DNA of 64,000 nucleotides from an uncultured Oscillospiraceae bacterium (GCA_947168655.1 CAMVMU010000002.1:15561-79560), one strand, 5' to 3'. Counted from the first letter of the stretch, positions 21,291 to 46,139 are shown. Numbers and translations are program-made. Notes: generated by a model not told the origin, from the sequence alone.

Positions 21291-21884
21291 TTACAGTCCG
21301 ACAATATGCCTGTTCTGAATACAGAAGATGACAAATGAAAGCAGAAGCGCAAACCAGTCAACAAGCATCACAAATCTTACAACGTACAGCACCCATCGGT
21401 CGACAATGCTGACGTCAGCGTCATTCTTTGACGGTGGACTCGTGAAAAACAGCTTGATCTTCGATGGTCCGGCGCCTTTGATGCGGGATAATCCGCCAAA
21501 CGCGATCTTAACGCAGACGATAAGCCCGATAAAGTAAAAGAGCCAGAACCAGATAATGTTAATTCTCGCCAGCAACGCAATAATACCCAGCACAGCAAAA
21601 CACAGGGAGAAGATCAGCGGTGTGCGAAATGAGCCGAAGATGTATACGCCGCTGTTCTCCCGGAAAATCGCTTCGACCCCCGACGCCATCAGGAGCAGCC
21701 AGAAAGAAATGGAGAGCAGAGCGCTGTGGAAACCTCCGATCAGCGTTTTTGACCGCAAAAGGACCCCCATGCCGTAAAAGGGTTCTCTTGTCAGCTTTCC
21801 GAAAAAATGTGTCAGCAGCGCAATGACAATGATCAGCGTGATCAGCGTCGCTGTCGTTTTTGTTGCATTTCGTACCGTAGTCAT
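21291..21884 (-). CDS. Hypothetical multi-pass membrane protein
   Basis: About five hydrophobic segments; ATGA overlap with the upstream GTPase gene. Confidence 0.75.
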   Translation of the reverse strand: MTTVRNATKTTATLITLIIVIALLTHFFGKLTREPFYGMGVLLRSKTLIGGFHSALLSISFWLLLMASGVEAIFRENSGVYIFGSFRTPLIFSLCFAVLGIIALLARINIIWFWLFYFIGLIVCVKIAFGGLSRIKGAGPSKIKLFFTSPPSKNDADVSIVDRWVLYVVRFVMLVDWFALLLSFVIFCIQNRHIVGL

Positions 21885-23515
21885 CTGCTTTCCTCCTCAA
21901 CAAATGCCGTCAGGTCATTGATACTGCTTTTGCACTGACGAGCCAGCCATCCAATCGGCGCAATCATGTTTTGAGGATCAAACGGGGATCCGTCAGCACA
22001 ATGGCCGATGGAGCTTACCGGGAAGAATGAAACGCGGGAGAATACACTTTCCAGGTTGTTGATAGCGTTTGCCAGACCGATATCCGACAGATATCGCCTG
22101 CAGATGGTATCCCGCGCCTCTTCCAGGCTGCCGTACTGATTCTGGTTTGCGGAAAACTCGGCTTTGATCTTTACCATGCCGATTTTTCTCTTGATGGCCG
22201 TCAGATCTGTCTTTGCAATGACCACGGCCACAGGCGTGTCGCTCATTTTTCTGGCCGTGCGTCCGGCAACCTCCGAGTACTTGTTGATAAAGTGGATGAT
22301 GATATCTTCCGTTGAGTCGTCCGAGAAGCCGTCAACGCTGTCTGCTCCCGTCATCGACTCGCACTCTTTTCTGACGGAGCGAATACTCAGAGGATCGATG
22401 ATCATGATAATTCCGTCACTGTAGGCAAAATTCAGCGGGTTTCTCTCGTACTGCTCACTGAGGATGACCTCATCGGGGACATCATAGATGACAATGCCGT
22501 CATCCGAGCTGCCCTTGTTCCCGTGCAGAATATAATAGGCACGCACCTCGTCCGTTGCGGATTTTTCCGTTCTGCCGGACTGATACATCCTCTCCAGATC
22601 CCGAAAGTCCTCCTCCGGTGAAAGGGACACATCGCGAACACCGCTTTTCTGAATCGCCTCAACATACTGATGCTGAAACGCGGCAATGAACGCCGTTTTT
22701 CCGGACGAGTTTCCTCCCACCACCTGGACGGTAAGCGCCTTGATGTTTGAGCCGGCCAGTGCGTAGTCGCATTTCGGGCAATAGGATTTTAACTCTTTGC
22801 GCTTCGACAAAGATGAGCAGGGGATAAAATGGCCGCAGGTGCATTTTGCATACAGGAGGCCGCATCTGCCCGGATACAGGTTGGCGTGCTTTTCTCCGCA
22901 ATGGGGACACTCAAAGACCGGGAGCTTGAATGATGTATAGCACTTGGGGCAGTGCTGCGTCACCCACGAGGTTTTGTCTGCCAGGTTGAACAGCGGCATC
23001 AGTACGTAGTTTACTCCCCAGAGGAACACCAAAAGCAGCAGGTACGCAAGGTTGAGAACAAAGTACGTGCTGACGCCGACTGCCGCACGCAGCATCATCT
23101 CCACCATACCCAGCGCTGCCATTGGCAGATATGCAAAAGAGCACAGAAATGCGATGGTCTTTGAGTGGCTCTCATAGTTGCCGAGCCGGTAGGCCAGTCC
23201 CGCAAAGCTGAACACAGACCACTTCTTATCAAGCAGGTACTTGTGCGCATCTCTGTATATCTGGCTTCGCTGAAACTGCCCCGAGCCGGCAGCAAAGCTG
23301 TACATCAGTTCGGCATCCGGTTTTTTCTTCCACGTTGCCTTATTCATTATAATTGCTTTAATAAGTGAATAAACGATATTAAAGCAGGCAACGATCGCTA
23401 GGATGATAAACACCGCGCGAAGCAGCCCGGGGATGGTCTCCCAAAACTCACCCACACGTGCAAATCCTTTTTGCAGAAGCTCGTGAATCCGCTCCAGCAC
23501 ATACCTCGTATTCAT
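21881..23515 (-). CDS. Membrane-anchored Zn-ribbon TRAFAC-like GTPase 3 (G3 motif degenerate)
   Basis: TM helices, CPKC/CPHC/CTC/CPKC, G1 GGNSSGKT, G3 DVPD, G4 AKTD, G5 VSS. Confidence 0.8.
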   Translation of the reverse strand: MNTRYVLERIHELLQKGFARVGEFWETIPGLLRAVFIILAIVACFNIVYSLIKAIIMNKATWKKKPDAELMYSFAAGSGQFQRSQIYRDAHKYLLDKKWSVFSFAGLAYRLGNYESHSKTIAFLCSFAYLPMAALGMVEMMLRAAVGVSTYFVLNLAYLLLLVFLWGVNYVLMPLFNLADKTSWVTQHCPKCYTSFKLPVFECPHCGEKHANLYPGRCGLLYAKCTCGHFIPCSSLSKRKELKSYCPKCDYALAGSNIKALTVQVVGGNSSGKTAFIAAFQHQYVEAIQKSGVRDVSLSPEEDFRDLERMYQSGRTEKSATDEVRAYYILHGNKGSSDDGIVIYDVPDEVILSEQYERNPLNFAYSDGIIMIIDPLSIRSVRKECESMTGADSVDGFSDDSTEDIIIHFINKYSEVAGRTARKMSDTPVAVVIAKTDLTAIKRKIGMVKIKAEFSANQNQYGSLEEARDTICRRYLSDIGLANAINNLESVFSRVSFFPVSSIGHCADGSPFDPQNMIAPIGWLARQCKSSINDLTAFVEEESR

Positions 23516-23539
23516 ATCAACATTCCCGCTTTCTTTTTC

Positions 23540-23884
23540 TCACATTTCCTGCCCGTTATCTTCTTCGTGTTCCTCTCCCTGTTCCTCTCCCTGCTCTTCC
23601 GCAGGCATCTCATGGGCGTGAGATCTGTTCTCGTGCGGATCCTCAATTTGGTAAAGATCGGGGTCGTTCATCCGATCGTTGAACTCCTCCTGTGTCAGCC
23701 CCTCATTTTCAGCCTGCTCGGCCTCCCGCCAGTGCTCGTGGCCGGGCTTGTGTCCCAGGTCATACTGTCCCTCAATGGGCTCGTGGGTGTTGGCGTCAAG
23801 GAACTGCCCCTTCTCATTCTTTTCCGCTCTGCGTTCAACCTCTTCCCTGACTTCCTTCCGGATATATGGACGATGGAGGGGCAT
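23540..23884 (-). CDS. HNH/EndoVII nuclease of GH-E type (stand-alone toxin-like)
   Basis: RPYIRK, YDLGHKPGHE, NDPDLYQIEDPHENRSH. Confidence 0.82.
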   Translation of the reverse strand: MPLHRPYIRKEVREEVERRAEKNEKGQFLDANTHEPIEGQYDLGHKPGHEHWREAEQAENEGLTQEEFNDRMNDPDLYQIEDPHENRSHAHEMPAEEQGEEQGEEHEEDNGQEM

Positions 23885-44002: not shown

Positions 44003-44031
44003 GACAAATCGACAATAGTATTGACTGTTTC

Positions 44032-44117
44032 AAGCCGATGCTTTGATAGAAAGACGAATGGTATTTCCGTGGGTGTACTATGCCCATTTGTCTTCCTGTC
44101 AAAGCATCGGCTTTTTT
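44032..44117 (+). terminator. Long leader hairpin with U-tract (attenuator-like)
   Basis: AAGCCGATGCTTTGATAGAAAGACGAATGG pairs with CCATTTGTCTTCCTGTCAAAGCATCGGCTT, then TTTT. Confidence 0.65.
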
Positions 44118-44297
44118 GCCGTGCCGGGAATACGCACCTTGACAACTGAACGATCCGCAGACAGGATCCGGCGGACGGTCCGGGGAAGCAGCGCCAGGAC
44201 CCGCCCGAGGGCGGCGAGCGTGCCAAGGAAACCGGCCGGCAGGCCTGCGGTGGATGCTAAAAGGAATCGTCAACCAACAGAAAGGGAGGATTCGTAT

Positions 44298-46139
44298 ATG
44301 ACAAATAACATCTTTCGTATGATCGACGGCAAAATGTTCCATTCAGTGTCCCTGGCATTCAGGGAATATGACTCCTATATCGAGCGAGACAGCTATGCCT
44401 CCGGCGCTTGCTGGAGATTTTTGCAGGCGGCATCTCTGCTCTCCGACGGCGAATGCCTTGGCTTGCAGATTGCGGCCCGGCATAGAGACGACCGCCGGGT
44501 GCTCGCGTATTCAAGCTCGGGCGTTGCGGTAACGCAGGACGATTTTCGTTGGATCTTCCATCATTGTTCCGCCGGAATCAGCAGTGACAGTTCCCCCATT
44601 GACGGCAGTTGCCAAAGCTCCCGCCAGATTTATCTGCTTCAATACGCCGAAAGCCGCGTTGTCCGTGAGGGGATCCGGGATGCAGGAAAATATGATTACG
44701 ATGACGATGATCGTTCAAGTCCCGTTGGCGAAAAATGCTTTGGGGAGCTTCTCACATCCATGGATGAGGCAAACGGCATCATCCACCTCCTGGCATCGAG
44801 CAGCGGCCAGGGGGTGATCCTTATCAGCCTGCCGGAGGAAATGACGCTGAGAATGAGGACTATGCTGTCCATGACGTTTCCCAATACCGCCGCGGTTGAT
44901 GTGACCTATTTCAAGGAAGAAGCACCACATGAACCGGCAGGTCTTTCAGCAGAACAATTTAGATTGGGGCTATCGGGGTTATTATCAGCGCTCATGATGA
45001 AGCGATCCGAGAAAGAACCGGCCTCTGACAAGCAGCTGTCCGCGTCGCCTGCTCCGGTTGCGGCTGGGCAGGATCGGCCGGTGAGCTGCACGCCCATCGA
45101 GGACCTGGATCTGAGCGTCCGCAGCTATAATTGCTTAAGAAGATCGGGGTACCACTATGTTGAAGATCTGTATTCGCTAACGGAGGATGACCTGATGCAG
45201 ATCCGCAATCTGGGCAGAAAGGGCGTGATTGAGATCAGGCAGAAGCTGTCGGAAGTGACCGGAAAGGCGGCCTTTGCTCCGTCCCCGCTGGAGGAACCCG
45301 ATTATTTCGCCATGCTGGACGAATTGATCGGTTTGAACGGCGTCAAGGGTCAGATTCGGAAAATTGCCTCCTTTGCCCGGATGAAACAGGAGATGGATGA
45401 GCAGGGGAGGAAGACACTCCCGCTGGTGCTCAACATGGAGTTCACCGGAAATCCCGGCACGGCGAAAACCACCGTCGCAAGAATTGTGGCTGGCATCTTC
45501 CACCAGCTGGGACTGCTCTCCGGCAGCAAGCTCGTTGAGGTGGGCAGAGCGGATCTGGTGGCGCGATACGAGGGACAGACGGCAGACAAGGTCAGATCCG
45601 TGTTCCAGCGGGCCGAGGGAAAACTTCTCTTTATTGATGAAGCATATTCCCTTGTGGAGAACACCGAGGGCACATTTGGAGACGAGGCAATCAACACCAT
45701 CGTACAGGAGATGGAAAACCGGCGCGACAGGACGATCGTGATCTTTGCCGGCTACCCCGATAAAATGGAGGAATTCTTCTTAAAAAACCCCGGGCTGAGG
45801 TCGCGTGTGCCGTTTCGCATTGATTTCAGCGATTACTCTGCCGGGGAAATGGTTCAGATCGCCCGGCTGGAAGCAAAGAAACGGGGCTTTGCCATCCGGC
45901 CCGATGCGGAAAAAAAAGTCGCGTCCATCTGCGCGCAGGCCGCGCTCAATCCCGGCATGGGAAACGGGCGCTTTTGCAGAAATCTTGTGGAAAACGCCAT
46001 CCTTGAATATGCCTCCCGGGTTTACGGCAGCGGCAAACACGAAAGCGTCCATGACTATGTGCTCACGGAAGAGGACTTTTTGTTTTCCCATCCGGCTGAT
46101 GTGTCCTTGCCCGAAAGAAAAATCGGCTTTGCCGCATAA
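44298..46139 (+). CDS. SpoVK/CbbX-like AAA+ ATPase fused to an RNA polymerase alpha-CTD-like domain
   Basis: [19 protein letters not shown]...[55 protein letters not shown]. Confidence 0.85.

Follow-up and report, generated by a model that had tools for sequence, protein, structure and literature searches.

The DNA described here, a window of 64,000 nucleotides from an uncultured Oscillospiraceae bacterium (GCA_947168655.1, CAMVMU010000002.1:15561-79560), carries on its minus strand an operon of 17 co-oriented genes, which runs from 43781 to 21291. In order, these encode an XRE-type regulator, a small protein, two VirD4-like proteins (VirD4a and VirD4b), GrpE, an Hsp70 (Hsp70-C), a second small protein, two further Hsp70s (Hsp70-B and Hsp70-A), a protein with a fibronectin type III (FN3) domain, a GTPase, a GAP1 protein, a second GTPase, an Imm33 immunity protein, a GH-E nuclease, a third GTPase, and a membrane protein. 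This order and orientation had been listed in a first-pass annotation made from the sequence alone, and both are borne out. Its interpretation of the operon as a candidate conflict or effector-handling system is partly supported: the core, the co-occurrence of the genes, the VirD4 pair, and the toxin/immunity cassette stand, while the chaperones as an addition and a neighboring AAA+ gene as a component do not. A Pfam search of the operon matched HSP70 (three times), GrpE, TrwB_AAD_bind/T4SS-DNA_transf/TraG-D_C, DO-GTPase (three times), GH-E, and Imm33; matches to fn3 and DZR were both below the cut-off.

Three non-homologous proteins of the operon, all encoded on the minus strand, share a Glu-rich tail that ends at or near Met. 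The first, of 62 residues (43235..43423), ends in ..EQDLENEMAL, and its positional homologs end in ..EEENELSM, ..EEEMDM, and ..EQEMDM. The second, of 99 residues (37537..37836), ends in ..EEEEEMSM, and in all 8 aligned copies the last three residues are MSM. The third is the predicted GH-E HNH nuclease (23540..23884; Pfam E 5.8e-24), with the acidic tail ..EEDNGQEM. Met is thus the last residue of the 99-residue protein, of the nuclease, and of the homologs of the 62-residue protein. The start of the nuclease gene is overlapped by the stop of the Imm33 gene (23884..24198, minus strand; Pfam E 1.5e-28), previously labeled DUF2185; the attention that had been drawn to a toxin/immunity cassette was deserved. 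The earlier description singled out one small open reading frame (ORF), that of the 99-residue protein, as acidic and overlooked the C-terminal tag common to three unrelated small genes. If a protein is required to end in Met and to have at least five Asp or Glu in its final 15 residues, 3 of 1288 crudely called genes in the genome qualify, two of them in the operon. Of the best 120 of 317 GH-E homologs, Met is the last residue in 86, Arg or Lys in 17, and Tyr in 3, with linkers of about 9–93 residues. The shared tail suggests effector handling.

The proteins bearing the tail vary between loci. The slot after GTPase 2 holds Imm33 and GH-E in six loci, SUKH and Tox-GHH (tail ..EEEIEQEM) in L007, and a ParB-like gene in L135; a ParB-like tailed protein occupies a different slot in L005, and L059 has none. 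These proteins are taken here to be ParB-like from a DGxHR motif, and Pfam gave no match to them. The last 54 nt of the GH-E gene in L133 and of the ParB-like gene in L135 have 48 nt in common although the domains before them are unrelated: the passenger was exchanged in front of a retained tail. The operon has the composition of a polymorphic toxin system, namely a swappable toxin, an adjacent immunity gene, and a constant part, the tail, which would serve in trafficking. Polymorphic toxin systems as described in 2012 (PMC3482391) likewise combine a fixed trafficking part with a swappable HNH toxin and cognate immunity; here, in contrast, no WXG, LXG, or RHS carrier is present, and that description places GH-E and WHH with type II, V, VI, and VII secretion systems (T2/T5/T6/T7SS), PVC, and similar routes, not with the tail/ATPase route of this operon. 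In two genomes (G091 and G863), acidic leaders are found at the N-terminus of WHH nucleases, with SUKH after them and a HerA-like ATPase; G863 additionally encodes a RelA/SpoT-like protein that carries such a leader and precedes an HD protein. This arrangement suggests convergence with the design of VirD4 and C-terminal tail. With C-terminal tags the immunity gene is found upstream, and with N-terminal tags downstream, as would be expected if toxin and immunity gene were exchanged as one block beside a fixed tag. These observations also bear on the view that ATPases and toxin cassettes gathered passively in a defence island, independently of the GTPase core, with the tails as relics. The optional nature of the module and the low-GC island beside a tRNA would agree with such clustering. 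The passengers, however, lie within the operon, tightly spaced and in three separate slots, and the tail outlives the exchange of the domain preceding it (L133/L135); this is regarded as the least probable of the explanations considered.

A second lower-GC island lies in the same genome outside the window (G000:C14, about 6300-27500; L078, L079). It contains ThiF/E1 and Ubl-, E2-, and JAB-like neighbors (three assigned by eye), a transglutaminase, SPFH, ClpP, and an M50 peptidase, together with a HerA-like protein of 845 residues, an acidic-leader WHH nuclease, and two soluble VirD4-like ATPases. The island presents the same idea of an ATPase and a tagged toxin on a ubiquitin-like system.

The two VirD4-like genes are also on the minus strand. 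VirD4a (41881..43182) is a soluble TrwB/VirD4-like ATPase with intact Walker A and B motifs (Pfam TrwB_AAD_bind, E 4e-43), which are invariant in 10 of 10 aligned copies. Its best match in the Protein Data Bank (PDB) is TrwB (E 9e-18), and it corresponds to the coupling ATPase (VirD4/TrwB) of type IV secretion. VirD4b (40487..41863) is a paralog lacking Walker A, for which Pfam gave no match and a PDB sequence search returned nothing significant. Its structure model (predicted local distance difference test, pLDDT, 70) has Cag-beta, TrwB, and the Legionella type IV coupling complex (T4CC) as top folds. Comparison with VirD4a by hhalign gave a probability of 0.3% for a shallow VirD4b alignment and 66% (E 5.5e-5) when 113 distant members were used. 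Because the family comprises 288 clusters and Walker A occurs in none of the 113 distant long members, VirD4b is, on sequence grounds, a conserved pseudo-ATPase and not a decaying copy. The operon contains no VirB4 or channel subunit, and the channel and anchored coupling protein of a type IV secretion system (T4SS) were not found in it; together with the TrwB-like match, this agrees with the first-pass description of a VirD4 pair without a T4SS. With PADLOC 2.0, no catalogued system was recognized in the operon, the full set of profiles specific to any one system being absent; only isolated generic matches (mad8, HerA, PDC-M61B, HTH) were returned, reflecting ATPase, helix-turn-helix (HTH), and Hsp70 similarities. 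It is conceivable that the VirD4 pair and the tagged proteins act as decoys, which obstruct or imitate the coupling machinery that invading conjugative elements use, without any transport. VirD4b is catalytically dead, two of the tagged proteins have no enzyme domain, and inactive effectors borrowed from other cell systems are described in PMC7159879. However, the invariant Walker motifs of VirD4a, the intact catalytic motif of the nuclease, and the presence of an immunity gene do not fit decoys, and this explanation is considered very unlikely.

The operon order is conserved across four phyla, and the recurrence of the gene set in other genomes, proposed earlier as a check, was found. A search with GTPase 1 returned 9 loci in Bacillota, Spirochaetota, Acidobacteriota, and Balneolota, the latter three at 74–79% identity; these loci are contigs of metagenome-assembled genomes, some of which may be mis-binned. 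The system is rare: one of 300 other genomes in the order has it, as do 8 of 400 genomes of the phylum and 11 of 201 from a spirochaete family. Three scans of viral contigs revealed no relative, and plasmids gave no GTPase 1 match. In a tree of 27 GTPase 1 rows, the window falls inside a 12-row clade (99/98), in which the VirD4 pair precedes GrpE in 7 of the 8 genomes with this stretch assembled (the window, G001, G002, G003, G307, G308, and G1443). G306, G948, G1432, and G1458 were left out of this count because their upstream DNA is missing; G1458 carries VirD4a on another contig. VirD4b was also found in 18 metagenome loci, and GrpE comes next in 14 of the 15 that extend past VirD4b. Among 8 distant Hsp70-type loci with both ends largely assembled, two encode a pumping ATPase: G005 has VirD4a, a member of the VirD4b family, and two small charged ORFs inserted mid-operon, neither insertion being present in its sister G309, and G091 has a HerA-like ATPase of 1080 residues. 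The tails of the small ORFs in G005 are of mixed charge and end in Arg; they are not acidic. Neither ATPase nor tagged small proteins were seen in the other six (G309, G1312, G1339, G1417, G1453, and G1374). In one of 8 tubulin-type loci (G515), genes for a HerA-like protein and an acidic-leader protein lie directly upstream. The module of ATPase and tagged passengers is thus optional and recurrent, although these loci are partly kin. A PF20013 search of 401 genomes gave 12 matches; 10 of the 11 fetched lack a GTPase partner on the available DNA, and these 10 were excluded from the counts, several of their contigs being short or ending at the gene.

The favored reading, to which a probability of roughly 40% is assigned, is that the VirD4 pair may recognize the Glu-rich, Met-ending tail and thread its passengers, including GH-E, to a membrane machine for export. 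VirD4a and VirD4b would form one ring or an ATPase–adaptor pair and would read the tail as the coupling complexes of Legionella and Xanthomonas read C-terminal signals. Imm33 would block GH-E until it is stripped off by the ATPase, and the Hsp70s and GrpE would hold passengers unfolded or remodel the machine. The transmembrane (TM) GTPases and the five-TM protein would keep the soluble ATPase at the membrane and build or remodel the exit, with a neighboring cell as the target. Export is the first choice for three reasons: cargo and antidotes match those of secreted polymorphic toxins, each locus has several tagged passengers, and the order of the genes reverses with the position of the tag. 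The shared tail, the exchange of passengers, and the joint occurrence of ATPase and tagged passengers also speak for this reading. GH-E, WHH, SUKH, and Imm33 are catalogued with secreted polymorphic toxins (PMC3482391), and in Legionella a Glu-rich C-terminus brings effectors to the coupling complex (PMC5802825). In the antibacterial type IV secretion of Xanthomonas (VirD4-XVIPCD; PMC8740702), VirD4 similarly reads a C-terminal region of toxic effectors, and a tail of variable length is required for translocation. Here, in contrast, VirB genes are absent, VirD4 is soluble, an additional dead paralog is present, and the tag is a short acidic tail rather than a folded domain. The Legionella Dot/Icm coupling complex with its E-block signal (PMC5802825) shares the Glu-rich C-terminus and a non-ATPase partner; in this operon the partner is a pseudo-VirD4 instead of DotM, and the Dot/Icm channel is absent. 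Extended type III-A CoCoNuTs (PMC11090510) also place TM-less EssC- or VirB4/HerA-like ATPases in an Hsp70-bearing defence operon, and secretion has been proposed for them. Their described features are a McrB GTPase core and WXG100 substrates, and include no GAP1 or acidic-tailed toxin/immunity pairs.

Several observations weigh against export. Hydropathy shows no N-terminal TM segment or membrane anchor in VirD4a, no channel gene was recognized in any locus, and a genome-wide search for VirB4-type proteins (PF19044) found nothing over the cut-off in a genome that is 76% complete. The system is present in diderm spirochaetes, where no outer-membrane part was recognized. No immunity gene was recognized next to the ParB-like passengers, and the 62- and 99-residue proteins have no known enzyme domain. 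At the locus of G004 the VirD4 pair is absent, and no tagged passenger was seen on the 6.3-kb contig of G948. Relatives of VirD4a are also encoded in small Zn-ribbon/membrane operons in which neither VirD4b nor a tagged toxin was seen (G1156, G1208, and a Paenibacillus plasmid). The loci in support are mostly related to one another, and their counts are therefore not independent. In addition, PMC7159879 argues that most systems of this class lack signs of secretion.

Relaxase tails, taken from 44 loci of which 13 without a complete called ORF were dropped, add a further point of this kind: none of 31 passes the tag test and 18 of 31 end in Arg. Relaxases are known substrates of coupling proteins. 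In another possible explanation, a conjugative element located elsewhere in the cell supplies the T4SS, and the VirD4 pair serves as the adaptor by which tagged toxins are loaded onto it. The unanchored VirD4a, the lack of a channel at the locus, the presence of a relaxase in the genome, and the relaxase-like Arg or Lys ends of 17 of the best 120 GH-E tails (of 317) fit such hitch-hiking. VirB4, however, is nowhere over the cut-off in the incomplete genome, and the fixed order of the pair and GrpE across four phyla points to a partner within the operon. Hitch-hiking is therefore judged unlikely, although less so than decoys. As a separate observation, soluble ATPases of the VirD4a family lie in short Zn-ribbon/membrane operons, with no T4SS genes recognized, at L128:16559-17881, L130:16680-17987, and L126:14887-16209.

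The core of the operon, encoded entirely on the minus strand, includes DO-GTPases (three in this operon), a GAP1, the FN3 protein, the Hsp70s, and GrpE. GTPase 1 (28394..29494) is soluble and has Zn ribbons, GTPase 2 (24216..25769) has four TM helices, and GTPase 3 (21881..23515) is a TM protein. Pfam DO-GTPase is over the cut-off for GTPases 2 and 3, and DxAGE, with the Walker-B Glu, is found in GTPases 1 and 2; Walker-B Glu, Zn ribbons, and TM helices are the marks of the DO-GTPases of GAP1-N2 systems. In GTPase 3, this G3 motif is replaced by D[VI]PDE in the window and in 4 of 4 close relatives checked, and the protein is possibly a pseudo-GTPase partner. GAP1 (25791..28340) is a divergent N2 type downstream of a GTPase, as established by profile comparison and not by direct scan: PF20013 did not match it directly, while a profile built from four GAP1s, of which three match PF20013, aligned to it at 98.3% (hhalign, E 2.4e-14), and a hidden Markov model of those GAP1s picks it alone among about 1300 genes (E 7.8e-9). 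The FN3 protein (29654..32734) combines a helical N-domain, a Zn ribbon, and an fn3 match below the cut-off (E 2.6e-4); a positional homolog is present in all Hsp70-type loci long enough, and it corresponds to the FNIII-repeat protein of GAP1-N2 systems. The earlier label "J-like" is unsupported, since HPD is absent from the N-terminus and Pfam DnaJ matches 0 of 10 aligned N-termini; no TPR match was obtained either, and a PDB sequence search with this N-terminus returned nothing significant. A degenerate bundle of J-like helices is conceivable for the N-domain.

Kaur et al. (2020; PMC7159879) described GAP1-N2 systems in silico as DO-GTPases with GAP1 and an FNIII protein and predicted an anti-invader role for this core, which bears out the earlier assignment to a system described in silico. 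The same paper reports HSP70 and GrpE, sometimes with a second HSP70 and with FNIII fused to DnaJ/TPR, in about 14% of GAP1-N2 neighborhoods. The window contains HSP70, GrpE, and a second HSP70 beside Zn-ribbon and TM DO-GTPases, GAP1, and the FNIII protein. Because the core is thus the Hsp70 theme of PMC7159879, the chaperone set is not new, and the claim of a private chaperone cycle as an addition falls. Compared with the published theme, the window has in addition a third GTPase whose G3 motif is altered, Hsp70s in which the C-terminal domains are swapped, the VirD4 pair, and tagged toxin/immunity genes. VirD4 is absent from the main text of PMC7159879, where HerA appears only in a reference title, and two of its supplements lack these terms; Figure 6 and Figure 1-source data 1, which were not covered, might list such neighbors. 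In the literature on GAP1-N2 and DO-GTPase systems, no description of the accessory module (VirD4 pair with tagged small proteins) and no experimental work on DO-GTPase systems were found. The core is known in silico; the accessory module was not found in print. Stand-alone GAP1-N2 proteins without a nearby GTPase occur in a housekeeping-like context in L039, L041, L042, L047, and L048, where they follow CTP synthase and ABC transporter genes (named by eye). Distant GAP1-N2 loci, whichever of the two themes they belong to, repeatedly contain a transglutaminase-like gene (L008:17425-18546, L009:15517-16593, L019:10257-11279, and L052:5133-6137).

The chaperone genes, again on the minus strand, comprise GrpE (39661..40473; Pfam over the cut-off), the lid-less Hsp70-C (37926..39647), Hsp70-B (35050..37497), and Hsp70-A (32782..35037), with catalytic residues intact in 3 of 3 Hsp70s. 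Hsp70-B is a recent duplicate of Hsp70-A, with 1230 nt identical between them and different C-terminal domains. An assembly artefact was considered for this duplication and rejected, since a contig from an independent run spans the junction of tail B and Hsp70-A; other contigs stop at the edge of the repeat, and a single-copy form exists too. Tail A is beta-rich and possibly lectin-like, resembling beta-sandwich carbohydrate-binding modules, and tail B resembles GIFT/ThuA-like domains, both similarities of features serving as leads only; a single-sequence fold of tail B was unusable (pLDDT 39). In distant loci the tail is vWA, and relatives have additional Hsp70-C copies fused to the N-domain of the FN3 protein or additional N-domain copies with WD40 tails. 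This swapping of domains between copies and loci confirms that the polymorphic Hsp70 tails merited notice; it is the diversifying pattern described in PMC7159879. An acidic T-W motif (..DTDTWND, ..DVDTWEE, ..ADTWDD) forms the end of Hsp70-A, of Hsp70-B, and of relatives with vWA tails, regardless of the preceding domain; it is a second conserved terminal motif, found in the window at 32782-32820 and 35050-35090. In a Balneolaceae locus, a broken remnant of the Hsp70-B tail domain lies between Hsp70-C and Hsp70-A (L073:6655-6888), and the tail is therefore an old part of the system.

Such variable tails on the Hsp70s and the FN3 protein (vWA, lectin-like, GIFT-like, WD40) resemble sensors, and they lead to the explanation ranked second after export, which is put forward only tentatively: intracellular defence, in which the Hsp70 tails act together with the FN3 protein and the GTPases as inner-membrane sensors of phage or plasmid proteins and the ATPase pair frees the tagged nuclease from its immunity protein upon infection, so that invader or host DNA is destroyed (abortive infection). 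The anti-invader role predicted for the core (PMC7159879) supports it. Channel genes were not recognized, pairs of HerA and an effector have been published as anti-phage systems, and a HerA and acidic-leader WHH module adjoins the ubiquitin-like conjugation set on contig C14. However, several tagged passengers per locus fit a transport queue better than a single suicide effector, PADLOC yields only generic similarities, and HD antidotes, being typical of secreted toxins, count against it. The antidotes SUKH and Imm33 are likewise typical of secreted toxins (PMC3482391).

In a broader and more doubtful proposal, GAP1-N2 operons with a VirD4 pair or HerA-like ATPase would constitute an unrecognized protein secretion system of gut Clostridia and spirochaetes, with no VirB or ESX channel and with short acidic tags as signal; the Hsp70s of the operon would serve as holdases, the membrane GTPases would provide the exit, and the cargo would be polymorphic antibacterial toxins. 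The published view (PMC7159879) is that systems of this class mostly work intracellularly and lack features of secretion, and the tagged variant offers a handle on that question: with a tag of about 15 residues, a nuclease with its antidote, and one ATPase with a mutable Walker A, export and intracellular defence can be distinguished directly by experiment. Should export hold, gut bacteria would have a new way of delivering polymorphic toxins, and the tag would be a short, portable signal for secretion; otherwise, the operon would represent tag-gated arming of nucleases in a large uncharacterized defence family.

The remaining features concern the layout of the region. The XRE-type HTH regulator (43455..43781, minus strand; 108 residues; Pfam HTH_31) keeps its position in most gut relatives, and the five-TM protein identified by hydropathy (21291..21884, minus strand) is the final gene in L001-L004 and L007. 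Likely starts differ from those of the longest ORFs for XRE (43781), Hsp70-C (39647), GTPase 1 (29494), GAP1 (28340), and Imm33 (24198). As stated previously, the genes are mostly tightly packed, with gaps mainly of -4 to 53 nt; the two exceptions are 159 nt between the FN3 protein and GTPase 1, and 89 nt between Hsp70-C and the small acidic ORF, where a hairpin scan located a 19-bp hairpin (37852..37893, no strand assigned). Another hairpin lies at 21214..21241 (also strandless), in agreement with the terminator proposed at about 21230, and an 11/12 promoter for the next gene lies just past it. For the promoter proposed at about 43900, a candidate sigma-70 site matching 10 of 12 consensus positions exists (43890..43918, minus strand); since the region contains 15 promoter-like sites against 11.5±3.9 in shuffles, this site alone is not significant. 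GC content is 53% across 21250-46900 and 61% and 63% in the flanks, and the low-GC stretch begins immediately downstream of a tRNA-Val (46968..47043, minus strand), so the region is probably an acquired island; a duplication of the tRNA-Val end as an att site was looked for and not found. The divergent gene on the plus strand (44298..46139), which encodes an alpha-CTD and a SpoVK/CbbX AAA+ domain (domain scan), had been counted with the system. Among all fetched loci it is present elsewhere only in the near-identical strain L021, and it is regarded as a neighbor outside the system; its candidacy as an EccA-like component was rejected on the same lack of conservation. Upstream of this gene, between the divergent transcription units, lies a 30-bp inverted repeat (44032-44113).

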